Assembly: GCA_028712565.1 (NCBI GenBank) | Contig: JAQTPW010000002.1 | Span: 99,601 to 163,600, forward strand | DNA: 64,000 nt | DNA from: Minisyncoccota bacterium | GTDB lineage: Bacteria; Patescibacteriota; Minisyncoccia; Minisyncoccales; JAQTPW01 | Reading direction: 5' to 3' | Part shown: positions 6,761 through 58,450 of the stretch, in pieces | How positions within the stretch are numbered: position 1 is the first letter of the stretch | Layout of the letters: every line of letters starts with the position of its first letter | Program-made: the position numbers and the translations under genes | The notes under the pieces: generated by a model | Database searches by the model: none | What the model was told of the DNA's origin: nothing | What the model saw: the letters and a program-made list of their open reading frames with translations, nothing else

Positions 6761-7279
6761 TTATTCTTGGCTGGAAAGAATATAAATCATTTTTTCTTTT
6801 GTATTTGGTTTTCTGTTTATGTGAGGTATCAGATTACTAGACAAGGATTCCAAATCGCTGGAAATGATTCCAGTGTCCAATCCATGAAGGGAGGCTTCTT
6901 TGAGCAAAGTTTCAAAATCACTATCTCCGCTGCCTAAGAAAAAATGAGTAATGGCTGGCATTTCAGATATCATTTTTTCTCCTAGTTTTATAATGATCTC
7001 ATCGGTCGTATCTTTTTCTTGCCCGTCTTTTGTTTTTACTTTTGGGCAGACAATTAAGAAAAAGTTTTCTTTATAAAGCGTCTCCCCAAATGTAATTTGG
7101 GTTTGGTAGGGGGCAAAAACAAACACTCCAATAATTTCTCCAATTTCTTTGGCAATTTGCCGCAAGGCTTTGTTAAGTTCATCTATGAATGACGGACGGG
7201 AAAATTTGAAATTAATGAAAAGATTATCAAAGTCCAAAAATATAAGCACTCTGTTTCTCTTTACTTTTTTATTAAACAT
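6761..7279 (-). CDS. NYN/LabA-like (PIN-related) domain protein
   Basis: VLIFLDFDNL near the N-terminus and FFLGSGDSDFETLL later match the acidic-residue pattern of NYN/LabA (DUF88) nucleases. This is recognition by motif only. Confidence 0.6.
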   Translation of the reverse strand: MFNKKVKRNRVLIFLDFDNLFINFKFSRPSFIDELNKALRQIAKEIGEIIGVFVFAPYQTQITFGETLYKENFFLIVCPKVKTKDGQEKDTTDEIIIKLGEKMISEMPAITHFFLGSGDSDFETLLKEASLHGLDTGIISSDLESLSSNLIPHINRKPNTKEKMIYILSSQE

Positions 7280-7380
7280 TTTTCTTTCCTTCTCTCAAAA
7301 AAATGATTTTAATGTACAACTAAAGCTATTCAGAAGATACAATAAAATTACTATTTTGTCAAGAAAAAACTAGATAAATC

Positions 7381-18339: not shown

Positions 18340-19503
18340 TTAGGATTTGTCGATTCTAAGATTAGCTTTGGCTTCAATATCGGGATACTTTTTCTTTGGA
18401 TTTTTCAAATAATTAAAATAGGCAGCCAAACCCACCATTGCCGCATTATCAGTAGAAAATTTAGTTTCAGGAACAAAAAATTTTACATTTGGAAGCTCTT
18501 TTTCAATCTTTTCTTTGAATTGTTTTCTTAATTCTTCATTCGCAGTAACTCCGCCGCCCAAAATTACACTTTTTGCTTTAAAATCTTTTGCAGCTTTTAG
18601 GGCTTTCTTCAATAAAACATCAATTATTGCTTGCTGGACTTCGGCGCACATTGCATTTATATATTCTTTCGATTTTTGGGTTTTCCCGCCCGAGGCGGGT
18701 CCGCCTTGGGCGGAGATATTTGATTTTTGATATTTGTATAGTACTGCGGTTTTCAGACCAGAAAAGCTGAAATCGTAATTTTTCTGCGCCATCATAGGCC
18801 GCGGAAGTTTTATTTGTGATTTGTGATTTGTAATTTGTAATTTTGCAGCCGCGGCTGCAATTGCTGGTCCTCCCGGATATCCTAATCCTAAAATTCTGGC
18901 AACCTTATCAAAGCATTCCCCAGCCGCATCGTCTCTTGTTTCACCTAAAATTTGGTATTTTCCAAGACCTTTAGCCAAAATCAACTGCGTATGGCCGCCG
19001 CTCACCACGAGGCACACCGCCGGAAGCAAATTTTTGTAATTTGTAATTTGTAATTTGTAATTTGAGCGAATGAAATTCGCTAAGATGTGGGCTTCGATGT
19101 GGTTAGTGGGCACGATTGGAAGGTTCATTTTCTTTGCTAAATCTTTTGCAAAATTTATTCCCGTCCACAAACAAGGCTCTAACCCCGGACCGTTAGTTAC
19201 AGCAATTAGATCAATTTTTGGTTTCTTTTTGAAGATTGAAAATTGATCATTGAAAATTCCAAAACCTGCTTCTTTTAACGCCCTTTTAAAAACAATAGGC
19301 AAGTTTTTTTGGTGTTCTCTTTTTGCTAGAGACGGAAAAACTCCGCCGTATTTTGCGTGGAGTTTAACTTGTGAGGAAACAATATTGCTAAGAATTTCTA
19401 ATTTCCAATTTTTCCCGCCCGAGGCGGGTCCGCCTTGGGCGGATATTTCCAAAATCGCGATTGCGGTGTCGTCGCAGGAAGTTTCAATAGCGAGGATAAT
19501 CAT
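18340..19503 (-). CDS. tsaD: tRNA N6-adenosine threonylcarbamoyltransferase TsaD, carrying about 50 extra residues in five loop insertions
   Basis: IETSCDDT, VSGGHTQL, DFSFSGLKT and TDNAAM motifs. 387 aa, compared with about 337 aa for the E. coli TsaD sequence I recall. Confidence 0.92.
   Translation of the reverse strand: MIILAIETSCDDTAIAILEISAQGGPASGGKNWKLEILSNIVSSQVKLHAKYGGVFPSLAKREHQKNLPIVFKRALKEAGFGIFNDQFSIFKKKPKIDLIAVTNGPGLEPCLWTGINFAKDLAKKMNLPIVPTNHIEAHILANFIRSNYKLQITNYKNLLPAVCLVVSGGHTQLILAKGLGKYQILGETRDDAAGECFDKVARILGLGYPGGPAIAAAAAKLQITNHKSQIKLPRPMMAQKNYDFSFSGLKTAVLYKYQKSNISAQGGPASGGKTQKSKEYINAMCAEVQQAIIDVLLKKALKAAKDFKAKSVILGGGVTANEELRKQFKEKIEKELPNVKFFVPETKFSTDNAAMVGLAAYFNYLKNPKKKYPDIEAKANLRIDKS
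18681..18742. repeat. GC-rich double-palindrome element copy 1 plus adjacent heptamers, in frame in tsaD
   Basis: ttttcccgcccgaggcgggtccgccttgggcgga (34 nt, identical to 19410-19443) followed by gatattt gattttt gatattt. The element encodes ...SAQGGPASGGK.... Confidence 0.85.
18812..18846. repeat. Heptamer repeat (atttgtg x2, atttgta x2) in frame in tsaD
   Basis: Encodes KLQITNHKSQIK. Confidence 0.8.
19029..19065. repeat. Heptamer repeat (aatttgt x4-5) in frame in tsaD
   Basis: Encodes SNYKLQITNYK. Confidence 0.8.
19393..19443. repeat. Heptamers plus GC-rich double-palindrome element copy 2, in frame in tsaD
   Basis: aatttct aatttcc aattttt followed by the same 34-nt cccgcccgaggcgggtccgccttgggcgga element. 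Encodes SAQGGPASGGK a second time. Confidence 0.85.
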
Positions 19504-21565: not shown

Positions 21566-21639
21566 TAATTAGCCAATAGCCAATAGCCACTAGTCGATAG
21601 CCACTAGTCGATAGCCACTAGTAATTAGTAATTAAAAAC
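21563..21639. repeat. Heptamer-periodic spacer, 11 units starting at the stop codon (taataat tagccaa tagccaa tagccac tagtcga tagccac tagtcga tagccac tagtaat tagtaat taaaaac)
   Basis: Strict 7-nt phasing of TAG/TAA from the stop codon of 20618..21565 almost to the next start. Confidence 0.9.
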
Positions 21640-21648
21640 AATAAATCT

Positions 21649-22101
21649 ATGGAAACAGAGCATGTAAATTGGGAAAACGAGGAATCAAACAAAATAATAA
21701 AGCCGCCGACAGAAACAAAAAAAGGAGTTATAGATAAAGGACCTCTTCCTACAAAAACAAAAATCGCAACATTCTGGATGTTAAGTATTGGAGGGATTAT
21801 GTTGCTTTATGGTTTGATAAAATTATTTCAAAAGTGTGAAGAATTTTATTGTTCTTCGCCGGCGAAAGGACTAATTTTTGGTCCCTTGCTGATAATTTCG
21901 GCACTCGGCTTATTAAAACTGAAAAGGAAGTATATCTGGGTTTTTATTGTTTCAATAACTATCGAACCATTTTTAATTGATTCACTAAGGGACGTCTTCG
22001 TATTTAGAAGCGCTATAGATTTTTTAAACGGTATTTTATTCCTAGTTCCTTTAGTGCTTTTTCTGATCGATAGCGGAAATTTTTGGAAAATAGCAAAATA
22101 A
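21649..22101 (+). CDS. Membrane protein, single LPTKTKIA...GNFWKIAK module
   Basis: 150 aa. Shares the PLPTKTKIATFWM N-terminal motif and the LFLIDSGNFWKIAK C-terminus with its neighbours. Confidence 0.75.
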   Translation: METEHVNWENEESNKIIKPPTETKKGVIDKGPLPTKTKIATFWMLSIGGIMLLYGLIKLFQKCEEFYCSSPAKGLIFGPLLIISALGLLKLKRKYIWVFIVSITIEPFLIDSLRDVFVFRSAIDFLNGILFLVPLVLFLIDSGNFWKIAK

Positions 22102-22161
22102 TAATTAGCCACTAGCCAATAGTATTTAGCCAATAGTAACTAGTTAATAATTAATTAATAA
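22099..22161. repeat. Heptamer-periodic spacer, 9 units starting at the stop codon (taataat tagccac tagccaa tagtatt tagccaa tagtaac tagttaa taattaa ttaataa)
   Basis: Same architecture as 21563-21639. Confidence 0.9.
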
Positions 22162-22929: not shown

Positions 22930-22955
22930 AAAAATCCGCCCGCGGGCGGATTTTT
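22930..22955. terminator. Bidirectional rho-independent terminator
   Basis: AAAAAUCCGCCCGCGGGCGGAUUUUU. Confidence 0.75.
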
Positions 22956-23040
22956 GTTTTATTCTAAATGAATTCCCCAGTACCAGTCCGTTCTTGGGCG
23001 GACGGTACGGGGCTTCGCTTGTTTTATTCTAAATGTATTC
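22954..23040. repeat. Direct duplication of the recG 3' end (22 nt, 1 mismatch) flanking a 43-nt hairpin
   Basis: ttgttttattctaaatgAattc (22954-22975) and ttgttttattctaaatgTattc (23019-23040). Between them, CCCCAGUACCAGUCCG-UUCUUGGG-CGGACGGUACGGGG folds as a hairpin. Confidence 0.85.
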
Positions 23041-25201
23041 GTGTCTTGTATTCCTTTATTTTTTCCCTTAACAATGGATAGTTTTTTAATTCGGGGTCTT
23101 CTTCCAATAATTCTTTTGCGTCGTTTCTGGCTTTGGAAACCAAAATAGTGTCTGTTAAAGAAGCCATTGCCAGGTCTGGTATTCCCCATTGCCGCTGTCC
23201 CGTAAAATCTCCCGGGCCTCTGATTTGTAAATCTTTTTCCGCTAACTCAAAGCCGTTGTCGCAGGTAATCAATGCCTTTAATCTTCTGTTATAAATAAAG
23301 CCTTCGGTATCGGTGAACAAAAAGCAATACGATTGAAAATCAGATCTTCCCACCCTGCCTCGGAACTGGTGGAGCTGGGCCAAACCAAATTTTTCCGAAC
23401 CCTCAATCATCATAACCGTTGCATTTGGAATATCCACTCCCACTTCGACGACAGAAGTTGAAACCAAAACATCAATAATTTTTTCCTTGAATTCAGTCAT
23501 TACGTTCTCTTTTTCTTGCGTCTTCATCTTCCCGTGCAGCATGCCAACTTTTAAATCCGGAAAAATTTCTTCTGCCATTTTTTTATATTCCTGTTTTACA
23601 GCTTTTACATCCATCCAAGACAACGCCCTTTCGTCAAACAGCCCTCGTTCTAAATTTTCCGGAGAAGCTTTAGGAGGTTCTATTCTCGGACAGATCACAA
23701 ATGCCTGCCTGCCTTCTTTTACTTGCTGCCTTATAAATTCGTAAGTCGCTTTTTTATCTTTTGGCTGGATTATTTTTGTAATTATTTTTTTTCTGCCTTT
23801 CGGAAGTTCGTCAATGATTGATAAATCAAGATCCCCGTAAATAGTTAAAGAGAGCGTGCGGGGGATAGGGGTGGCGGTCATGCTCAAAAAGTGCGGTATC
23901 GTTTTTTGGGCAGTTTTTAATTTGTAGCTGTTAGTTATTAGTTTGGCTCTTTGTTCCACTCCAAAACGATGCTGTTCGTCGATAATTACAAAAGCCAAAT
24001 TATTAAACTGGACAGGGGTTTTTTTAGGGGTTTCGGGATCCGTATCTTGGATTATTGCGTGAGTGCCGATTAAAATATTGGTTTTGCCGTCTTTTACGTT
24101 TTCCAAAAGTTTTTTTCTTTCTATTTTTTGATTTTTATAATAGCTTTCTTTGCCGGTAATTAGCCCCACATTTATATCAAATTTTTCCAAAAGATTATTT
24201 ATGGTTTTGAAATGCTGTTTTGCTAAAATTTCAGTTGGAGCAAGGAGCGCAACTTGATATCCTGATTTCGTCGCATTTAAAGCCGCCATCGCCGCCACAA
24301 CTGTTTTTCCAGAGCCGACATCTCCTTCCAAAAGCCGGTTCATTGGCCTTGGCCTTTCCAAATCTTTTAAAATCTGCCAAGCGGATTTTTTCTGGGCATC
24401 GGTTAATTTATAAGGCAAACTTTCGGTAAATTCTTTCATAAGCCCTACATCCAAAGGTATGGCCGGGGCTGTTTCTTTTGCCAATTTCATTCTTTCTCTC
24501 AAAACAAAAAGGGCAAGCTGGAATAATTCTTCAAAAGAAAACCTTTTTTTGGCTTCCTCCGCATCTTTTAAGGAATCGGGAAAATGTATCTGCCAGATTG
24601 CTTTTTGAAATGGCAGAAAATTGTATTTTTGGGAAATTTTTGAAGGAAGAGAATCTTCAATTTTGTTTCCCAACTCTGTCAAAATCGGCTTTACAATAAA
24701 CCTTAGCCATTTTGAAGACAGTCCCTCGGTTTCAGGATATATAGGAATTAATCCGCCGGTATGATTCAATTCAAAATCCACTTCTTTGTAGTTTGAAGGA
24801 ATTCTTTCATAAGCCGGGCTGGAAAAATATTTTGAGCTTTTTTTGCCCTTTACTTTGCCGGCCAGACAGACAAAAGTTCCTTTTTTCAAAGTGTTTATCA
24901 AATAGGGCTGGTTAAACCAGAGAGCTTTTATTTTTCCAGTTTCGTCCTCGACAGTTGCCTGAGTCAGCATCATTTTCCTTCTGAAGGCCCGGAAAGTTTT
25001 AATATCTGTTATTTTCCCCTGGACAGAAAAGGGACCTCCTTCTTCAGCTTGAGAAATCAAAATTAAATTTGAAAAATCCTCATAGCGATGAGGAAAATGG
25101 AAAATTAGCTGGCCAACGGTTTTAATGTTCAGCTTTTTCAGCCTTCTTTGATAAGCCGGGCCAACATGAGGAATTTCTTCAACTGAAGTTGAAAGGTTCA
25201 T
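23024..25201 (-). CDS. recG: ATP-dependent DNA helicase RecG
   Basis: Wedge/OB N-terminus, helicase motifs GDVGSGKT, DEQHRFG and QLHQFRGRVGR. Start placed at the ATG at 25201 (MNLSTSVEEI) because the longer ORF reads across tRNA-Arg. Confidence 0.93.
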   Translation of the reverse strand: MNLSTSVEEIPHVGPAYQRRLKKLNIKTVGQLIFHFPHRYEDFSNLILISQAEEGGPFSVQGKITDIKTFRAFRRKMMLTQATVEDETGKIKALWFNQPYLINTLKKGTFVCLAGKVKGKKSSKYFSSPAYERIPSNYKEVDFELNHTGGLIPIYPETEGLSSKWLRFIVKPILTELGNKIEDSLPSKISQKYNFLPFQKAIWQIHFPDSLKDAEEAKKRFSFEELFQLALFVLRERMKLAKETAPAIPLDVGLMKEFTESLPYKLTDAQKKSAWQILKDLERPRPMNRLLEGDVGSGKTVVAAMAALNATKSGYQVALLAPTEILAKQHFKTINNLLEKFDINVGLITGKESYYKNQKIERKKLLENVKDGKTNILIGTHAIIQDTDPETPKKTPVQFNNLAFVIIDEQHRFGVEQRAKLITNSYKLKTAQKTIPHFLSMTATPIPRTLSLTIYGDLDLSIIDELPKGRKKIITKIIQPKDKKATYEFIRQQVKEGRQAFVICPRIEPPKASPENLERGLFDERALSWMDVKAVKQEYKKMAEEIFPDLKVGMLHGKMKTQEKENVMTEFKEKIIDVLVSTSVVEVGVDIPNATVMMIEGSEKFGLAQLHQFRGRVGRSDFQSYCFLFTDTEGFIYNRRLKALITCDNGFELAEKDLQIRGPGDFTGQRQWGIPDLAMASLTDTILVSKARNDAKELLEEDPELKNYPLLREKIKEYKTRIHLE

Positions 25202-25236
25202 AGGTTTACACTGAGCGAGTAAAGCGAGTCGAAGTG

Positions 25237-25309
25237 TGCCCCCAGTAGGATTCGAACCTACAGTCACAAGGTCCGCAACCTCGTATTTTATCCATTAAAC
25301 CATGGGGGC
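25237..25309 (-). tRNA. tRNA-Arg(GCG)
   Basis: GCCCCCA-UG-GUUU-AAUGGAUA-AAAU-A-CGAGG-UUGCGGA-CCUUG-UGACU-GUAGG-UUCGAAU-CCUAC-UGGGGGC-A. Confidence 0.88.
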
Positions 25310-26037: not shown

Positions 26038-26191
26038 ATAAAAAGGGGTGATATGGCGGGCGATATGGAGGAGGGGTTTGCTGGTTGATTTCTGGTCTGG
26101 AAAAATTTTGAGAATTGGAAAATTTTGGAAAAACGGAGAATCTAAAAAGATTTGAAAAAATAATAAATTTAAGTTAATCTTTAAATATAAC

Positions 26192-26281
26192 GGAGAGGTG
26201 GCTGAGTGGCCGAAAGCGGCACGCTGCTAATGTGTTAGGGGAGAAATCCCCTCGTGGGTTCGAATCCCACCCTCTCCGCCA
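26192..26281 (+). tRNA. tRNA-Ser(GCU) with encoded CCA
   Basis: GGAGAGG-UG-GCU-GAGUGGCCGAA-AGC-G-GCACG-CUGCUAA-UGUGU-UAGGGGAGAAAUCCCCUC-GUGGG-UUCGAAU-CCCAC-CCUCUCC-G-CCA. Confidence 0.9.
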
Positions 26282-26309
26282 GTTAGTAAAATTATAATCA
26301 TTTAATTTT

Positions 26310-26624
26310 ATGACTATAAATTTTTATTTTAAAAAAGCCGATAAGGGTTGCGAAGAACAAATTAGAAATCATTTTACAAAAGAAAAACAAGGCAGGATAA
26401 CTCGTTTTTTACAACACGGAAATTTAGACCTTGCTGATTTGAAAATAAACGTAGAATATCTTTCGCATCACAATAATTTTTCAGTTGAATTTATTTTGAT
26501 TATTAAAAAGCATAAATTGGTTGCAGAGAAAACAGCTTTTAAATTATTGGAAGCGTTTGACACGGCTTTGGATAATTTGGTTTTTCAATTAAGAAAATCA
26601 GAAGAGATATTGCACGATAAATAA
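26310..26624 (+). CDS. hpf: Ribosome hibernation factor (HPF/RaiA/YfiA family, short form)
   Basis: 104 aa. The beta-alpha-beta-beta-beta-alpha pattern and the ...LVAEKTAFKLLEAFDTALDNLVFQLRK tail are typical of the family. Confidence 0.6.
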   Translation: MTINFYFKKADKGCEEQIRNHFTKEKQGRITRFLQHGNLDLADLKINVEYLSHHNNFSVEFILIIKKHKLVAEKTAFKLLEAFDTALDNLVFQLRKSEEILHDK

Positions 26625-26628
26625 AAAT

Positions 26629-26870
26629 GGAGAGGTGGCTGAGCGGTTGAAAGCAGCAGTCTTGCCACGTACGAAAGCGGAGGGTTGGCTGAGAGGACTA
26701 TAGCGCTGGTCTTGAAAACCAGTTGGGGAGAAATCCCCTCGGAGGTTCGAATCCTCCACCCTCCGCTTTCTGACGTGGTCTGCGGAAAAACATTGGAATC
26801 GAAGTGAGCCTGCCCCGTATAATCCGAGCGGAGCGAAGATTTGTACGGGGTTCGAATCTCACCCTCTCCG
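26629..26870 (+). other. Split tRNA-Ser-like gene (5' half 26629-26664; 3' half ~26779-26870) interrupted by tRNA-Ser(UGA) and by a 42-nt hairpin inside the T arm
   Basis: The 5' part GGAGAGGUGGCUGAGCGGUUGAAAGCAGCA matches tRNA-Ser(GCU) at 26 of 30 positions. The 3' part is GUGAG[42-nt insert]UUCGAAU-CUCAC-CCUCUCC-G. The acceptor strands are perfectly complementary. See findings. Confidence 0.5.
26679..26765 (+). tRNA. tRNA-Ser(UGA)
   Basis: GGAGGGU-UG-GCU-GAGAGGACUAU-AGC-G-CUGGU-CUUGAAA-ACCAG-UUGGGGAGAAAUCCCCUC-GGAGG-UUCGAAU-CCUCC-ACCCUCC-G. Confidence 0.9.
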
Positions 26871-26997
26871 CCTTCGCTCCGCCGAAGCCCTAAAGGGCGG
26901 AGGCGGGCTTCGCCAGAGCTTCGGCGTGACAAGTCCGCAACGTAATAAATTTTCTGAGAAAATTTAAACGTTGCTGAAAAATTTTTATATTAAATTT

Positions 26998-45431: not shown

Positions 45432-48400
45432 ATGAAAGTATCAGATTTAGAATCAATAAAAATAAAAATTGCCTCTCCTGACAATATTTTAAGCTGGTCT
45501 CATGGGGAAGTGACAAAGCCCGAAACTATAAACTACCGCACCCAAAGGGCGGAAAAAGACGGTCTTTTTTGCGAGAAAATTTTCGGCCCTGAAAAAGATT
45601 ACGAATGTTATTGCGGAAAGTACAGAAGAATAAGATATAAGGGAATTGTCTGCGACCGTTGCGGAGTTGAAGTGACAAAGTCGCAAGTAAGAAGAGAAAG
45701 GATGGGCCATATAAAATTAGCCAGCCCCTGCGCGCATATCTGGTTTTTAAAAGGAGTTCCCTCTTCTGTGGGAATGGTTTTGGACATGCCAATGGCGCAA
45801 TTGGAAAGGGTGATTTATTTTGCCGCTTATATTATAACTAATGTAAATCCGGAAGCGAAAAAAAATACTTTGGAGGAAATTGAGAAAGAATATAAGCAAA
45901 AAACAAAAAACATAAAATCTAAGGCAAAAACAAAAAAAGAAGAAAAGTCAGGGCTTGAAGAGCTGACTGCCCTAAGAGATCGGGCAAAAACCGAAGTTGC
46001 GAATTTGAATTTTCTCCGCGTTTTATCCGAAGTGGAATATCATGATTTGTCTTTAAAATATGGAGAGATATTTGAAGCAGGCACTGGAACAGAAACTTTA
46101 AGAAAGATTTTTGAAAAAGTAGATTTAAAAAAGGAAATTGAAAAACTAAAAAAAGACATTGAAGAATCTACTCCGGCAAACAGGAGGAAATTATTGAGGA
46201 GATTAAAATTTTTGCAGGGAATGATAGATAGCAGCCTTCGTCCAGAATGGATGTTTTTAACGGCATTACCTGTCTTGCCTCCGGATTTAAGGCCAATGGT
46301 CCAGTTAGACGGCGGAAGATACGCTTCGTCCGATTTGAATGATTTGTACAGGAGAGTCATTAACAGGAACAACCGCTTAAAATATCTTTTGGAAATAAAT
46401 GCGCCAGACGTCATAGTCAGAAATGAAAAAAGGATGCTGCAGGAAGCAGTAGACGCTTTGATTGATAATGGGATGAGAAAGGGAACTACCACTCAGGCAA
46501 CAACTGGCGGCAGAAGATTATTAAAGTCCTTGGCTGATATGCTAAAAGGAAAGCAAGGAAGATTCCGCCAGAATCTTTTAGGCAAAAGAGTTGATTATTC
46601 TGGAAGGTCGGTAATTGTTGTTGGTCCTGAATTGCGGTTGAACCAATGCGGCTTGCCAAAACAAATGGCTTTGGAGCTTTTCAAACCCTTTGTAATAAGA
46701 AAAATTCTTGAAAAAGAATTAGCTTATAATGTCAGAGGCGCCTCAAGATTAATTGAAGAAGAAACCGACGAGGTCTGGGCAATCCTGGAAGAAGAAGTAA
46801 AAGGAAAATTGGTTTTATTAAACAGAGCTCCCACTTTGCACAGACTTGGGATTCAGGCATTTCAGCCGGTCTTAATTGAAGGAGAATCAATCAGGATACA
46901 TCCTTTGGTCTGCAAGGCCTTTAATGCTGATTTTGATGGAGACCAGATGGCTGTCCATTTGCCGCTTTCGACTGAAGCGCAAACTGAGGCAAGAGAAATT
47001 ATGATGTCTTCATTAAATCTTCTAAAGCCGGCAACCGGGACCCCAATAGTTACTTTATACCAAGATATTTCTCTGGGGTGCTATTGGCTGACAAATATTA
47101 TAGAATCAGGAGAAATTATTTCAAAAATTTACGGCTCTCCCAAAGAAGCAGTTTTAGCTTATGAATTTGGAGATATTTCTATTAAAGAAAAAATAAAGGC
47201 CAAGGGAATAAAGGGGAAAGACCCAAATGAATTTGTGGAGACTTGTGTAGGCCGAATTTTATTTAATGAAACTTTGCCTGCTGACTATCCTTACCAAAAT
47301 TCGCTTATTAAAGTAAAAGATCTGGAAAAAATAACCAGCAGAATTATTTCAAAATACGGATTGGAAATAGCAGAGATTACCTTGGACAAAATAAAGAATT
47401 TGGGGTTTGAATACGCGACAAAGTCAGGGATTAGCTGGGGAATTGATGATTTGGTTATCCCTCCTGAAAAAGGAAAGATTATTGAAGGGGCTGAAAAAGA
47501 AATCAGCCAAGTTGAGGATCATTACCAAAAAGGACTTCTTTCAAAGGAGGAAAAAATTGCCAAAGTTATTGAAATTTGGACAAAAGCGAAATCAGAAGTT
47601 GAAAAACTGGTTCCTCAAGCTTTGCCTAAAAACGGATCTGTTTTCCAAATTGTGGATTCGGGTTCCAGAGGATCTTGGAGCCAGCCAGTCCAGATGGCAG
47701 GGATGAAGGGATTGGTTATAAATCCTGTCGGCCAGATTATTGAATTGCCTGTCATCAGCTCTTTTAAGGAAGGGTTTGATGTTTTGGAATACTTTATTTC
47801 AACGCACGGGGCCAGAAAAGGAACAGCTGATACGGCTTTAAGAACCTCAACTGCCGGGTATTTGACCAGAAGGCTAATTGATGTTGCCCACGAAATAATA
47901 GTTTTTGAAGAAGATTGCAAAACAATAAAAGGAATTGAAATTTCAAGGAAAGAAGCTGACGATCTCGGCCAGAATTATGTTTCAAAAATTGTGGGAAGAG
48001 TAACTTTGGAAGATATAAAATCAGGCCCGGCAAAGCCGGAAAATCAGAGGGCAAAAACAATTGCCAAAGCTGGAGAAATTATTGATTGGGAAAAAGCCGA
48101 GGAAATCGTGGCAACAGGTGTTGAAAAGGTTAATATTAGAAGCCCTCTAAGCTGCAATTCTACAAGAGGCGTTTGCCAAAAATGCTATGGTTGGGATTTA
48201 GGCGCAAATAAGTTAGTAAAAATAGGAGAAGCGGTAGGAACGGTTGCGGCTCAGGCAATTGGGGAGCCGGGAACTCAACTGACAATGAGAACCTTTCATA
48301 CGGGTGGAGTAGCTGGAGGAGGGGATATTACTTTTGGTTTGCCAAGAGTCCAGGAAGTTTTTGAGGCGAGAATCCCCGGAGGAAAAGCTGAAATTTCCGA

Positions 48401-49043
48401 AGTTGATGGAAAGATTTTGGAAATAAATCCTGACAGGATTATAAAAATAAAAGCGGAAAGCGCAGACCCAAAAAGCAAAAAGAAAGAAGTTTTGGAATAC
48501 AGAATCCCATTAAAAAGCGCAATTTTGGTTTCCGTGGGCCAAGATGTTAAAAAGGGAGACCAACTTTGCGAAGGAAGTTTGGATCTAAAGGAATTATTCA
48601 AAATGGTTGGCGTCTCTAAAACCCAGCGCTATATTGTCAATGAAATCCAAAAAATTTATGTTTCCCAAGGAGCTCAAATTCATGACAAGCATATTGAAGT
48701 TATTGTCAAACAAATGTTTTCCAGAGTAAGGATAAAAGATATTGGCGCTTCTTCTTTCACCCCCGGAGAAATTGTGGAAAAATCAGAATTTTTAGAAAAA
48801 AATGCGGCTTTAAGAAAAGCCGGAAAAGAAACTGCAACCTGCGTTCCTATTCTGCTCGGAATTTCTCGGGTTTCTTTGACCACAGATTCTTTCTTATCTG
48901 CTGCTTCTTTCCAGGAAACATCAAGGGTTTTGATAAAAGCTTCTCTTGAGGGGAAAGAAGACAAGCTAAGGGGTTTGAAAGAGAATGTCATAATTGGAAA
49001 ACTAATCCCAGCTGGAACTGGCTTTAAGAAAGAAGAGAAATAA
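45432..49043 (+). CDS. rpoC: DNA-directed RNA polymerase subunit beta'
   Basis: 1203 aa. Zinc motif CYCGKY...CDRCGVEV and catalytic NADFDGDQM. Confidence 0.98.
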   Translation: MKVSDLESIKIKIASPDNILSWSHGEVTKPETINYRTQRAEKDGLFCEKIFGPEKDYECYCGKYRRIRYKGIVCDRCGVEVTKSQVRRERMGHIKLASPCAHIWFLKGVPSSVGMVLDMPMAQLERVIYFAAYIITNVNPEAKKNTLEEIEKEYKQKTKNIKSKAKTKKEEKSGLEELTALRDRAKTEVANLNFLRVLSEVEYHDLSLKYGEIFEAGTGTETLRKIFEKVDLKKEIEKLKKDIEESTPANRRKLLRRLKFLQGMIDSSLRPEWMFLTALPVLPPDLRPMVQLDGGRYASSDLNDLYRRVINRNNRLKYLLEINAPDVIVRNEKRMLQEAVDALIDNGMRKGTTTQATTGGRRLLKSLADMLKGKQGRFRQNLLGKRVDYSGRSVIVVGPELRLNQCGLPKQMALELFKPFVIRKILEKELAYNVRGASRLIEEETDEVWAILEEEVKGKLVLLNRAPTLHRLGIQAFQPVLIEGESIRIHPLVCKAFNADFDGDQMAVHLPLSTEAQTEAREIMMSSLNLLKPATGTPIVTLYQDISLGCYWLTNIIESGEIISKIYGSPKEAVLAYEFGDISIKEKIKAKGIKGKDPNEFVETCVGRILFNETLPADYPYQNSLIKVKDLEKITSRIISKYGLEIAEITLDKIKNLGFEYATKSGISWGIDDLVIPPEKGKIIEGAEKEISQVEDHYQKGLLSKEEKIAKVIEIWTKAKSEVEKLVPQALPKNGSVFQIVDSGSRGSWSQPVQMAGMKGLVINPVGQIIELPVISSFKEGFDVLEYFISTHGARKGTADTALRTSTAGYLTRRLIDVAHEIIVFEEDCKTIKGIEISRKEADDLGQNYVSKIVGRVTLEDIKSGPAKPENQRAKTIAKAGEIIDWEKAEEIVATGVEKVNIRSPLSCNSTRGVCQKCYGWDLGANKLVKIGEAVGTVAAQAIGEPGTQLTMRTFHTGGVAGGGDITFGLPRVQEVFEARIPGGKAEISEVDGKILEINPDRIIKIKAESADPKSKKKEVLEYRIPLKSAILVSVGQDVKKGDQLCEGSLDLKELFKMVGVSKTQRYIVNEIQKIYVSQGAQIHDKHIEVIVKQMFSRVRIKDIGASSFTPGEIVEKSEFLEKNAALRKAGKETATCVPILLGISRVSLTTDSFLSAASFQETSRVLIKASLEGKEDKLRGLKENVIIGKLIPAGTGFKKEEK

Positions 49044-49072
49044 AGCTCGGCAGTCTATTCAGGGAGCACGGC
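48990..49072 (+). repeat. Direct repeat copy 1: last 54 nt of rpoC (including stop) plus 29 nt
   Basis: Identical to 49238-49291 plus 49301-49329 (copy 2 has a 9-nt insertion, attgaaggg). Confidence 0.9.
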
Positions 49073-49205
49073 GTCGGCTTATATGGTAATAAAATTAATT
49101 TCCCGCCGCGCCTATCACTCGCCAAACATTAATTCTTTAATAGCTCATTCTTGGTCAAATGTTTGGCTCCGTAATGCTCCCTTCATATCCTGCCTAGCTC
49201 TTTTT
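49044..49205 (+). other. Highly structured ~160-nt RNA-like segment directly after the rpoC stop (unassigned)
   Basis: AGCUCGGCAG pairs with CUGCCUAGCU. AGGGAGCA pairs with UGCUCCCU. Inner hairpins are CGGCG...CGCCG and GCCAAACAUU...AAUGUUUGGC. CUUUUU follows. Confidence 0.45.
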
Positions 49206-49237
49206 AGAGATTCATTTTTTACTGAAAATTTAATTCT

Positions 49238-49329
49238 ATAATTGGAAAACTAATCCCAGCTGGAACTGGCTTTAAGAAAGAAGAGAAATAAATTGAAGGG
49301 AGCTCGGCAGTCTATTCAGGGAGCACGGC
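49238..49329 (+). repeat. Direct repeat copy 2: non-functional relic of the rpoC 3' end
   Basis: Encodes IIGKLIPAGTGFKKEEK* but is preceded by an in-frame TGA five codons upstream. Confidence 0.9.
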
Positions 49330-49415
49330 AAGGGTTGGAGTGTTTAATTTTATATCTAAAAATCTTTTTGGCTGGGTTTTGGGATGAATGAATGGTATAA
49401 TGAATTAAGAAAAAA

Positions 49416-51563
49416 GTGGCCAAAAATAAAAATCAAAAAAACTTTCAAAAGAAAGCAAAAAAAACAATAAGAATCCCAAAAATTTATTTGCCCGAAGAGG
49501 CAAAAAACTGGATTTGGGGGATTTTATTGTTTATTTTTGCTTCTGTTTTTTTGCTTTCTTTTTTCCATTTGGCAGGAATCGCTGGAGATAAATTAAACGA
49601 ACTTCTTCAAATTTTTATTGGGAAGACCTTTTATCTAATGCCCTTAATTTTTGTTTTGGGCGGAGCGGTTTTTTTTACAACGAAAAACAAAAAATTTATC
49701 GGCCCTACAGTTTTGGCAATTTTAATTTTGGTTTTGGGAATTTCGGGAATTCTTGAGGGGCTTAATCTTAAACCCAGAGACGGGGGGCTTTTGGGATATG
49801 TAATCGCTTTTCCCTTTTTGAAATTTTTCAGCCCTTGGGTAAGCCATATTGTTTTTGGCTCCTTTATTGTTTTTGGCGGATTAATATTTTGGTATCTTTT
49901 AAAAGGATTTGCAAATTCCGCGCCCGTTTCTGAAAAAGATGATGACCTGAAGGAAAAATCCGAAGCTGCTTCCCAGAAGCCGTCTTTTTTGAAAAAAATA
50001 TTTTTTCCAAAGTTTAAGATAAAAGAAATAGAGCCAAAAGATCAAGCTTTGGAAACAAGGCCCGCAAAGCCGCCGGAATTAAAAACAAAAGAGCAGGAAG
50101 TTTCCAGCCCCACATTTCCCTATCAGGCTCCGCCAATAGATTTGCTTGATTCTGGAAAAGAATCGCCAACGAGCGGAGACATTAGGGCGAATTCAGCAAT
50201 AATTAAAAAAACCCTGCAAAATTTTGATATTTCAGTGGAGATGTCAGAGGTGAACATAGGTCCCACTGTGACTCAATACAGTTTTAAACCCGCAGAGGGA
50301 GTTAAATTATCAAAAATTACGGGCCTATCCAATGATTTGTCTTTATCCTTGGCTGCCCATCCCATAAGAATAGAAGCTCCGATTCCCGGAAGATCTTTGG
50401 TTGGAGTTGAAGTTCCAAACAGAGTTAGGGCAAAAGTAAGGTTAAGAGATTTGGTGGCAAACCCTATTTTTCAGCAATCCTCGTCAATTTTAAATCTGGT
50501 TTTAGGAAGAGATGTTTCGGGAAGCCCGGTTTATGCAGACATTTCACGAATGCCGCATTTATTAATTGGCGGCAGCACAGGAACGGGGAAAACCATATTT
50601 TTAAACAGTTTGATTTTGTCTCTTATTTACAGAAATTCTCCGGAAATGCTGAATTTTATTTTAATTGACCCAAAAAGAGTGGAGTTCCCGGTTTATAATG
50701 ATTTGCCGCATTTATTGGCTCCAGTAATTCTCGATGCTTCAAGGGCAGTGAATGCTTTGAAATGGCTGATTTCAGAAATGGAAAGAAGATTTGATGTGTT
50801 GTCTGCGGCAAAGGCCAGAGATATTTTAAGCTACAACCAGCAAATTGCGGAAAAAAGCGAGGTTCTGCCTTACATTGTTGTAATCATTGATGAATTGGCA
50901 GATTTAATGGCAGCAAGAGGCAGAGACATGGAGGCCGGCATTGTAAGATTGGCCCAAATGGCAAGAGCTGTGGGAATTCATTTGGTAGTAGCAACCCAGC
51001 GGCCTTCTGTTGAAGTGATTACGGGTTTGATAAAAGCCAATATTACTTCAAGGGTTACTTTTCAGGTTGCATCTCAAGTTGATTCAAGAACTGTTTTGGA
51101 TGCAGCCGGAGCGGAAAAACTTTTGGGAGCAGGAGATTTGCTTTTTATTTCTGCCGAAATCGGAAAACCAAAAAGAATACAGGGAGCTTATGTTTCTGAT
51201 AAGGAAGTAAAAAGAGTTGTAAATTATATAAAATCAAAAAACATAAAACCGGAATATAAAATAGGCGAAGAAGTTTTAGAAAACCAATTAAGGGAGGACT
51301 TGGAAAAAAGTTTGGACATGCCAGAGAGCGAATTTGACGGATCTTATGGAGACGACCCGCTTTATGAAGAGGCGCAAAGGGTAGTGACCGAAGCCAGAAA
51401 AGCCTCGGCTTCTCTTTTGCAAAGAAGATTGAGAATAGGCTATGCCAGAGCCGCAAGATTAATTGATATGTTAGAGGAAAAAGGCGTGGTTGGGCCGGGA
51501 GAGGGGGCAAAGCCAAGGGAAGTTTTTGTTGCTGCGGAAGAAGAAAAAACGGAAATTATATAA
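49416..51563 (+). CDS. ftsK: DNA translocase FtsK/SpoIIIE
   Basis: GTG start. N-terminal TM helices, motor domain with GSTGTGKT, and a C-terminal gamma wHTH ([18 protein letters not shown]). Confidence 0.93.
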
Positions 51564-52965: not shown

Positions 52966-53536
<571 letters not shown>

Positions 53537-56483: not shown

Positions 56484-58229
56484 CACTTCAATCACCACGG
56501 GCAATATTATGGGTCTTCTTTGCGTTTTTGTATAGAGGAATTGGCCAATTTTATTCCTTATCTCATCTTTAATATAAACCCAATTCACCGCCCCGCCTGA
56601 AGTTACAGCCCGGTCTACAATACCAATTACTTTTTTTCTTGTTTCTCTCAATAATTCTTTTGATTCTCTAAGGTAAACGAATCCTCTTGATATTATATCG
56701 GGGGAACCCCTGACCTTGCCAGTAGTTTTGTCAACGACGGCAACAATGACAAACATTCCGTCTTTTGCCAGCATTTGTCGGTCTCTCAATACTACCTCTC
56801 CGACATCCCCGATTCCCAAGCCGTCCACCATTACATAGCTTGAAGGGACAGTTTCTTTTTCAATAAAAATCCTTTTTTGGCTTAAGTTGATTATATTTCC
56901 ATTTTCAACAACAATAATATTTTTTTCAGGAATTCCTGTTTCTTTTGCCAGTTCGGCATGAGATACAAGCATTGAATATTGGCCATGTATGGGGAAGAAA
57001 AATTTAGGTTGCATAATTTTTATCATTTCTTTTAATTCTTCCTGCTGGGCGTGGCCGCCGGCATGGATATCCATCATTTTATAGTGAAAAACTCTAACCC
57101 CTTGCCTTAAGATTTCATCTTTCATAACCTGAACCGTTCTTTCGTTCCCGGGGATAACCGAGGAGGAAAAAATTGCCGTGTCTCCCTTTTTTAATTTCAA
57201 AAACCTATGTTCTTTGTTTACAACTCGCATTAAAACCGCCTCTGATTCTCCTTGGGCTCCGGTGCAAAGAACAGTTATTTTTGAATCGGGATAATTTTGG
57301 GCTTCTTTAATGGAAATTAAGGTTCCTCTTTTTGATTTAATATAACCTAGCGTTTTTGCAAGTTCGACATTAGTTTTCATTGAATATCCTTCCAGACAAA
57401 CATACCTGCCATATTTCTCAGAAAGAGTGATAATCTGCTGGACGCGGTTAATCAAAGACGCAAAAGTGGCGGCTATAATCCGGCCCTGGGATCTTCTGAA
57501 AATCTCCTCCATGTTTTTGAAAATGTCGGTTTCGGAAAGAGAATGGCCTTCTTCTTCGGCGCCGGTGGAATCTGACATTAACAATAATATTTTTCTTTTT
57601 CCGAAATCTCTTAATTTTTGAAAATTTGTCGGCAAATCATTTATTGGATTTTGGTCAAATTTAAAATCGGAAGTGTGCAGAATGTTTCCAATCGGAGTTT
57701 CTATAAAGAGCCCCAAATTATCAGGAATATTGTGGTTTTGCCTGAAAAATTCAACTGAAAACGGCCCTAATTTTACTTTGTATCCGTCTTTTACCTCATT
57801 AATATCAAGTTTGGGCTGTTGGGGGAAATCTTCCTGCCTTTTTAAGATTATTCCTCTTGTTAAAGGAGAAGCAAAAATTTCCAAATTAGGATGCCAGATT
57901 TCTTTTAACAAATAAGGGACATTCCCGATGTGGTCATAATGTCCGTGGGTAAAAAAGATGCCTAAAATATTTTTTTCTTTGCCTTTTAAATAACTGATAT
58001 TTGGGACAATGTAATCTATGCCCGGCATATCTTCTGAGGGCATTCTAAAACCCATGTCGCAAATCAAAATCTTCCCTTGTATTTCAAAGATTGTCATATT
58101 CCTTCCCACTTCTCCTAATCCTCCCAAAGGAATTATTTTTAAATTTCCTGCATCAGAAACTTCGTTTCTGCGCGGGACTGATCCAGTACTGAATCTTGTT
58201 CTAGCGCTGGATTGTTGTATTTTTTTCAC
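56481..58229 (-). CDS. rnj: Ribonuclease J
   Basis: GTG start. Beta-lactamase/beta-CASP fold with FFTHGHYDHIG, and GGLGEVGRN near the N-terminus. 582 aa. Confidence 0.93.
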   Translation of the reverse strand: MKKIQQSSARTRFSTGSVPRRNEVSDAGNLKIIPLGGLGEVGRNMTIFEIQGKILICDMGFRMPSEDMPGIDYIVPNISYLKGKEKNILGIFFTHGHYDHIGNVPYLLKEIWHPNLEIFASPLTRGIILKRQEDFPQQPKLDINEVKDGYKVKLGPFSVEFFRQNHNIPDNLGLFIETPIGNILHTSDFKFDQNPINDLPTNFQKLRDFGKRKILLLMSDSTGAEEEGHSLSETDIFKNMEEIFRRSQGRIIAATFASLINRVQQIITLSEKYGRYVCLEGYSMKTNVELAKTLGYIKSKRGTLISIKEAQNYPDSKITVLCTGAQGESEAVLMRVVNKEHRFLKLKKGDTAIFSSSVIPGNERTVQVMKDEILRQGVRVFHYKMMDIHAGGHAQQEELKEMIKIMQPKFFFPIHGQYSMLVSHAELAKETGIPEKNIIVVENGNIINLSQKRIFIEKETVPSSYVMVDGLGIGDVGEVVLRDRQMLAKDGMFVIVAVVDKTTGKVRGSPDIISRGFVYLRESKELLRETRKKVIGIVDRAVTSGGAVNWVYIKDEIRNKIGQFLYTKTQRRPIILPVVIEV

Positions 58230-58359
58230 CCCGTTAGAGGTCTGTCCTATATAGTTTATACGCTAATTTTGGATAGACCTTTATTTTTTGATTAATCCCC
58301 CCGTTATCGCAAGCAAAAAATTTATTTTAAATTTTTTGCCCAAGACCTCTAACGGGGTT
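58227..58359. repeat. 133-bp TIR-bounded palindromic element, copy 2 (tRNA-Leu(CAG)-rnj spacer)
   Basis: Differs from copy 1 by one extra T (ggaTagacc) and one fewer T in a T-run. Its terminal CAC is the GTG start of rnj. The other end lies 6 nt from the tRNA-Leu 3' end. Confidence 0.9.
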
Positions 58360-58365
58360 TTATAG

Positions 58366-58450
58366 TGCGGACGGAGAGATTTGAACTCTCACGGGATTTT
58401 GTCCCCTTGGCTTCTGAGACCAAGGTGTCTGCCAGTTCCACCACGTCCGC
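58366..58450 (-). tRNA. tRNA-Leu(CAG)
   Basis: GCGGACG-UG-GUG-GAACUGGCAGA-CAC-C-UUGGU-CUCAGAA-GCCAA-GGGGACAAAAUCCCGU-GAGAG-UUCAAAU-CUCUC-CGUCCGC-A. Confidence 0.9.

Follow-up and report, generated by a model that had tools for sequence, protein, structure and literature searches.

A structured element beyond the rpoC stop codon and a copied rpoC gene end in a Minisyncoccota genome

We have analysed the 3' end of rpoC, the gene for the beta' subunit of RNA polymerase, in 64,000 nt of DNA from a Minisyncoccota bacterium (GenBank assembly GCA_028712565.1, contig JAQTPW010000002.1, positions 99,601 to 163,600 of the forward strand), hereafter called the window. At this locus the end of rpoC appears twice, and between the two copies lies most of a folded element that we call E. 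Downstream of rpoC follow ftsK (49416-51563) and then recA. The RpoC protein of the window matches, at 100% identity, one from an NCBI Candidatus Pacebacteria metagenome-assembled genome. Genomes of the Candidate Phyla Radiation (Patescibacteria) are tiny, with few known regulators and few catalogued non-coding RNAs. If two distant lineages share a conserved branched RNA where their RNA polymerase operon ends, a core gene would gain a candidate element for its regulation or stabilisation. The locus also calls for caution, as a textbook integration footprint may arise by local copying around a resident hairpin.

The rpoC gene end and its second copy

The features of the repeated gene end are as follows.

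45432-49043, + strand: rpoC, from the list of open reading frames (ORFs); 1203 aa, C-terminus IIGKLIPAGTGFKKEEK followed by the stop
48990-49043, + strand: repeat part A, copy 1; the functional rpoC end, 51 coding nt and TAA; exact repeat
49044-49072, + strand: repeat part B, copy 1; from E, the 5' arm of P1 (25 nt) and the first 4 nt of helix P2
49206-49237, + strand: AT-rich tail between E and the second copy, holding an in-frame TGA
49238-49291, + strand: repeat part A, copy 2; a non-coding relic of the rpoC 3' end
49293-49301, + strand: the 9 extra nt of copy 2 (TTGAAGGGA), from pairwise alignment and k-mer search
49301-49329, + strand: repeat part B, copy 2; the 5' arm of E by itself, its partner arm lacking downstream

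The initial annotation had claimed that the last 54 nt of rpoC and the next 29 nt recur downstream with a 9-nt insertion as the sole difference, and our repeat search and alignment agree. Positions 48990-49044 and 49238-49292 form an exact direct repeat of 55 nt, 49044-49072 and 49301-49329 an exact repeat of 29 nt, and the copies are offset by 248 and 257 nt, respectively. In the pairwise alignment, copy 2 differs from copy 1 only by its 9 extra nt (TTGAAGGGA / ATTGAAGGG). The repeat is far beyond chance: its local alignment score is 145 against 18.5 +/- 2.3 in shuffled sequences, and the 29-mer, for which 0 matches are expected by chance, was found in none of 100 shuffles. The second gene end is indeed dead, as had been proposed, with an in-frame TGA upstream at 49223-49225 and no start codon.

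The right-hand boundary of the repeat sits inside E, 4 nt into P2. The whole layout amounts to 1.34 copies of a 248-nt unit; it is not a simple tandem duplication. The 10-mer TGAAGGGAGC (49294-49303) comprises eight of the nine extra nucleotides and the next GC; read in reverse complement, it matches 49176-49185, the inner 3' arm of E, exactly. The stretch after copy 2 folds no better than background (z +0.5). A second rpoC gene end within 1.2 kb was absent from all 59 other rpoC ends.

Element E and its homologue

Together with part B of copy 1, 127 of the 165 nt between the copies form one unit, E, with the following parts.

49044-49199, + strand: element E, a three-way junction, from minimum free energy folding, the homologue in contig L017 and covariance model R1
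49044-49053/49190-49199, + strand: P1a of E; AGCUCGGCAG pairs with CUGCCUAGCU, with one C.U mismatch
49056-49058/49185-49187, + strand: P1 middle of E; three central pairs, UAU/AUA
49061-49068/49175-49182, + strand: P1b of E; AGGGAGCA pairs with UGCUCCCU
49070-49078/49105-49112, + strand: P2 hairpin of E
49121-49130/49158-49167, + strand: P3 hairpin of E
49200-49205, + strand: CUUUUU tract directly after the closing helix of E, a terminator-like tail by sequence

E is about 156 nt long. The two inner hairpins are GGCG.CGGC/GCCGCGCC and GCCAAACAUU/AAUGUUUGGC, and the strands that join the helices at the junction are C, UAUCACUC and UCCGUAA. On the + strand, 49040-49210 folds at -52.8 kcal/mol with z = -5.0, which bears out the claim that the insert and the 29-nt part make up a multi-helix structure followed by CUUUUU; on the - strand, the same stretch folds at -64.5 kcal/mol with z = -7.45. 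In the fold, the P1 arm in part B of copy 1 pairs with 49175-49199. The helices that had been named are all present, but what had been described as a 7x7 internal loop actually contains the three central pairs of P1.

When E was searched with nhmmer against all fetched loci, and the match was then read directly, a homologue was found at 3080-3213 of L017, 34 nt past the rpoC stop. L017 is a JGI contig from a distant Parcubacteria relative, whose nearest named RpoC relatives are annotated as Staskawiczbacteria. It has no duplication of the rpoC end. Folded alone, its element forms the same three-way junction (-66.3 kcal/mol, z -5.8). The consensus has 31 pairs, and every one of them is formed in the window as well as in L017, nine by compensatory changes on both sides and two with a change on one side; only one of 500 shuffles was as good, and slid controls reached 29-48% paired. 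The strings common to both elements are GCUCGGCA, GGAGCACGGCG, CGCGCCUA..CUCG, AAUGC and CUGCCU.GCU, followed by a U-run, and AGAG at 49206-49209 is likewise common to both loci. At the positions of P2 and P3, L017 has two hairpins with sequences unlike those of the window. Identity between the two genomes is 64% in E and 63% in the adjoining rpoC coding DNA. In L017, UUUU comes right after the closing helix, and a canonical terminator lies downstream of the element.

A covariance model, R1, was built from the window and L017 elements, which it scores at 189.8 and 161.9 bits. Its search of 508 kb of rpoC-linked loci returned only these two, and with filters off it gave no second E in the window. 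In Rfam 15, the window yielded only tRNAs at gathering thresholds; in an E-value scan of 48900-49500 the top score was 18.7 bits, where the threshold is 76, and for the L017 element it was 18.6 bits, where the threshold is 66. The conserved pattern of E had no match in viral contigs. E would therefore seem to be a structured element, so far undescribed, that belongs to the 3' region of rpoC. Thus, the possibility of an undescribed 3'-untranslated-region RNA, one of three origins that had been offered for the insert, gains support for the structured part from the homologue, the compensatory changes and the lack of an Rfam match. Two known classes were considered and set aside. A hammerhead-like reading of the junction was ruled out by eye and by Rfam. 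A 6S RNA is a rod-like hairpin with a large central bubble, E is a three-way junction, and no match to the 6S family was obtained for the window locus or the L017 element even at E-value <= 10.

The spacers of relatives give the background for this comparison. The nearest RpoC relatives of the window are only about 80% identical. The order rpoB-rpoC-ftsK-recA is conserved in close relatives, and where ftsK follows, their rpoC-ftsK spacers measure about 25-220 nt and are unalignable save for the ftsK promoter. In a comparison with possible empty sites, the relatives carry single rpoC ends, at no more than 80% RpoC identity and with spacers unalignable with the window. Plain terminators stand at the equivalent place after rpoC in L001, L002, L004, L005 and L094; that of L001 has a GGAGCAC/GUGCUCC helix directly after the stop. 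In L093 and L094, which are more closely related to L017, E is absent and the terminators are plain. In spacer alignments with six close relatives, the match of TATTCAGGGAGCAC / TATCCAGGAGCAC to L001 was not significant alone. The back-translated rpoC C-terminus had no match among JGI metagenome contigs, and in GTDB it matched four genomes, unrelated or distant, in which the spacers are short and the element is missing. The spacer varies within the clade, since in the P0003 locus (JGI sample 3300075153), from a 79%-identical relative, a 340-nt gap and an extra ORF of 119 aa that has no Pfam match lie between rpoC and ftsK.

One further hairpin was observed in L002, at 7257-7359. It is a long-stem hairpin of about 100 nt right after the rpoC stop, it begins GCUCGGCAAU, and a separate canonical terminator follows it. 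It starts GCGCUCGGCAAU, ends AUUGCCUCAC and has GCCGCGCC in common with E, to which it may be related in a rearranged or reduced form.

In terms of function, E would be a resident and evolutionarily conserved element of the rpoC 3' untranslated region, built from a long interrupted closing helix, two variable hairpins and a three-way junction with conserved unpaired strands. It would most likely be transcribed as the tail of the rpoB-rpoC mRNA, and the closing helix with its U-tract would serve either to terminate the transcript or to shield its 3' end. The sequence conservation of the unpaired junction suggests an additional binding partner. E is found downstream of rpoC, and on its strand, in both genomes, with a U-run after it; this U-run and the orientation to rpoC speak for the + strand as the transcribed one. 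In the window, E is the only terminator-like feature before ftsK. It has the layout of an intrinsic terminator, with a GC-rich helix that runs to 49199 and CUUUUU at 49200-49205, downstream of the stop codon; a simple terminator scanner missed it because its loop exceeds 8 nt. The genes downstream differ, being ftsK in the window and a 72-aa ORF behind the terminator in L017, and accordingly E belongs to rpoC and is not the leader of a downstream gene.

Two known systems resemble E in part. Intrinsic terminators likewise have a GC-rich closing helix and a U-tract just past a stop codon, and the L001 helix has the same GGAGCAC/GUGCUCC. However, E is about 156 nt long and has a three-way junction, two extra hairpins and conserved unpaired strands, none of which termination needs, and in L017 a separate canonical terminator comes after it. 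The rpsL leader motif of Pelagibacter is also a conserved structured RNA in the spacer after rpoC, where it serves as the 5' leader of rpsL (PMC2704228), but the genes downstream of E vary and E has no Rfam match.

Origin of the duplication

We consider that a conserved, resident E was overlaid by a private and recent rearrangement in which the gene end was copied by slippage or template switching, and we give this interpretation a probability of about one half. A piece of 84 nt, comprising the last 54 nt of rpoC and the first 29 nt of E, would have been copied again 248 nt downstream, most likely by replication slippage or template switching around the hairpin-forming E, and this would have left behind a gene end that is dead and a 5' arm of E that stands alone. 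Since the 59 other rpoC ends and L017 are without the duplication, it is separate from E and private to this genome, and it is probably a recent event over the resident element. Short-range template switching and quasipalindrome rearrangement are a general mechanism (PMC7954356), and templated insertions of the type made by microhomology-mediated break-induced replication have been described (PMC8421209). The identity of the 10-mer with the reverse complement of E's inner 3' arm suggests a patch copied from the opposite hairpin strand, as in short-range template switching. As this 10-mer, with the 9-nt extra, inverts the inner 3' arm of E, we favour template switching over an integrase or a transposon. 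The likeness to template-switch rearrangements thus lies in a local duplication beside hairpin-forming sequence and a 10-nt patch from the opposite strand; the difference is the minimal microhomology at two of the three joints. Compared with quasipalindrome corrections, the event is larger, with 84 nt copied and 165 nt skipped.

Several points weigh against this interpretation. With regard to the event, its path requires either one complex multi-step template switch or a tandem duplication with a deletion and an indel, and there is almost no microhomology at the slip-back junction (..AATTCT|ATAATTGG) or at the junction between part B of copy 2 and the sequence that follows; moreover, the duplication is read from a metagenome assembly. 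With regard to E, its clear members are two sequences, so that the statistics are thin. Its distribution is patchy, without a counterpart in the closer relatives of both hosts (L001, L003-L006, L009, L011, L093 and L094), and L002 gave only a weak 14-bit match, in P1 alone. The minus strand folds equally well or better in both genomes, wobble pairs indicate both strands, and termination in L017 does not need E because a canonical terminator follows.

A second gene end in the window has the same layout at smaller scale, as had been claimed.

22954-23035, - strand: recG gene-end repeat; the 17-nt end CATTTAGAATAAAACAA, with the stop codon, at 23019-23035 and again at 22954-22970

Here the end of recG (23024-25267, minus strand) recurs 65 nt downstream; the copies are separated by a GC-rich hairpin of 48 nt (-24.5 kcal/mol), and a canonical terminator follows. 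The repeat reaches 22 nt with one mismatch (GAAT[A/T]CATTTAG..., with GAAT in both copies). Apart from those at rpoC and recG, no short-range repeat in the window encloses an insert with a strong fold, and no such case was found in about 90 kb of relatives' loci. The recG case hints at a recurrent hairpin-associated process. If recG shares the cause, the two loci would be a natural example of hairpin-associated template switching that makes gene-end relics.

The alternative that survives best is an assembly artefact, which we regard as unlikely. In this case, two strain alleles of the rpoC-ftsK spacer, one reading A-B-insert and the other A-9nt-B-downstream, would have been joined in series by the assembler, and the repeat would be present in no single genome. 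The sequence comes from a metagenome-assembled genome, the longer of the two repeat blocks measures exactly 55 nt, and no independent assembly of the species was found among GTDB representatives or JGI contigs. A length of 55 is a common largest k-mer size in metagenome assemblers. However, a serial path needs real k-mers over 49237|49238, which neither allele alone supplies, and the templated 9-nt patch reads as a signature of biological rearrangement. The recG case, with the same layout in only 82 nt, fits within single short reads, which speaks for gene-end layouts of this kind being real in this genome.

The initial annotation had likened the layout of the locus to what site-specific integration into a gene 3' end produces. 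Its description of the layout (functional gene end, insert, relic gene end) holds, but the inference of an integration footprint is not supported. A circular element with an 84-nt attachment (att) site, integrated at the rpoC end and decayed to about 165 nt so that the repeats are attL and attR, would be expected to leave just this layout, as do islands in the 3' ends of tRNA, transfer-messenger RNA (tmRNA) and protein genes, with their intact end, intervening DNA and relic end. Integration events may also have occurred elsewhere in the window, where fragments of tRNA-Ser genes stand beside intact ones. Nevertheless, we hold this origin to be very improbable. In contrast to such islands, the intervening DNA here is 165 nt, holds no genes and is not foreign: most of it is E, which is present after the L017 rpoC without any repeat. 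Because the 5' arm of E lies inside the repeat, the repeat boundary cuts a resident conserved structure and does not flank foreign DNA. The repeats are 100% identical, though the interior would have been almost wholly deleted. The 165-nt interval has no integrase or other recombinase, and its one ORF, of 52 aa, shows nothing to mark it as a gene. In phages and plasmids, BLAST with 49044-49237 returned chance matches only. Scans for the E arm pattern gave no match in GTDB representative genomes and, in viral contigs, two matches in GC-rich coding DNA that we attribute to chance. Accordingly, the decayed integrated element that had been suggested is not supported.

Equally slim is the chance that the duplication has been kept as an RNA switch, in which the 3' arm of E and the U-tract pair with copy 2 in read-through transcripts and remodel the rpoC-ftsK mRNA junction. 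When 48985-49345 is folded whole, the 3' arm of E does pair with copy 2 and not with copy 1, and the 9-nt extra extends the helix by about 12 pairs, the U-tract included. However, the whole-region fold is no better than shuffles (z -1.0), the extension depends on four G-U pairs, and the alternative forms only once the terminator has been passed. Since the arrangement is absent from the other genomes, nothing points to selection for a switch.

The least credible reading is a miniature non-autonomous transposon with long and variable target duplications (84 nt at rpoC, 17 nt at recG). It has in its favour that IS1634 and IS1549 make direct repeats of 8-514 bp (PMC2266710), that the layout occurs at two loci in 64 kb, and that the window holds a 135-nt repeat with 17-nt terminal inverted repeats that resembles a MITE (miniature inverted-repeat transposable element). 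Against it, the rpoC and recG inserts are unrelated in sequence and, in contrast to IS1634 and IS1549, have no terminal inverted repeats, transposase or other copies. The insert at 49073-49237 begins GTCGGCTT and ends AATTCT, and no other copy of it was found in the window, in 92 loci, in phage and plasmid collections or in pattern scans. The inverted repeat that does exist joins part B, within the repeat, and 49175-49199, so that the 3' part of the insert pairs with its supposed target, which is unexpected for an unrelated insertion. The insert is largely resident E, and E is without a flanking target duplication. The miniature insertion with an unusually long target duplication, which had also been put forward, is thus not upheld.

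Two further candidates were dropped. It might have been that 49073-49237 is a decayed copy of rpoC sequence upstream or of the spacer downstream, but it showed no significant similarity to either. A relic rpoC end ahead of E in L017 would have consisted of an 8-mer match only (p ~0.04).

A more ambitious proposal extends the template-switching interpretation, and we judge it doubtful. E would be the founding member of a class of structured RNAs at the rpoC 3' end in Parcubacteria; its junction would bind a factor, for example RNA polymerase or a ribonuclease, that sets beta/beta' expression; and the rpoC and recG duplications would represent recurrent hairpin-driven copying, able to create RNA switches by alternative pairing.

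Other features of the window

Ahead of the ftsK start at 49416, one box was recognised from the sequence and the spacer alignments.

49393-49401, + strand: extended -10-like box TGGTATAAT

This box is the sole part of the rpoC-ftsK spacer that is alignable with the relatives L002, L003, L004 and L006. A promoter scan of 48800-49600 gave no match on either strand. Where the tail of E meets the relic gene end (49235-49242), the joint creates TCTATAAT, a perfect -10 hexamer, for which the promoter scan gave no matching -35.

The MITE-like repeat of 135 nt occurs at 53402-53536 and 58225-58359 with 95% identity between the copies and terminal inverted repeats of about 17 nt (CCCCGTTAGAGGTCT / AGACCTCTAACGGGG). 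One copy lies beside the end of rpsF and the other between RNase J and a tRNA gene (58366-58450, minus strand).

At 26189-26872 there are two intact tRNA-Ser genes, 26192-26281 (GCT) and 26679-26766 (TGA), and two partial tRNA-like copies, 26626-26658 (85% to the 5' half) and 26830-26871 (71% to the 3' half). The partial copies may be scars of integration or duplication.

In the TsaD ORF (18340-19503), a GC-rich double hairpin of 34-37 nt, TTTTCCCGCCCGAGGCGGGTCCGCCTTGGGCGGA, occurs twice, at 18681-18717 and 19410-19446, and the Pfam match of TsaD spans 323 residues for a profile of 264 positions. These double hairpins may be in-frame palindromic insertions. Finally, two arrays of 14-nt tandem repeats (TAGCCAATAGCCAC-like) lie 500 nt apart at 21570-21622 and 22099-22151, and they flank short ORFs with repeated 65-nt segments (20652, 21147 and 22195).

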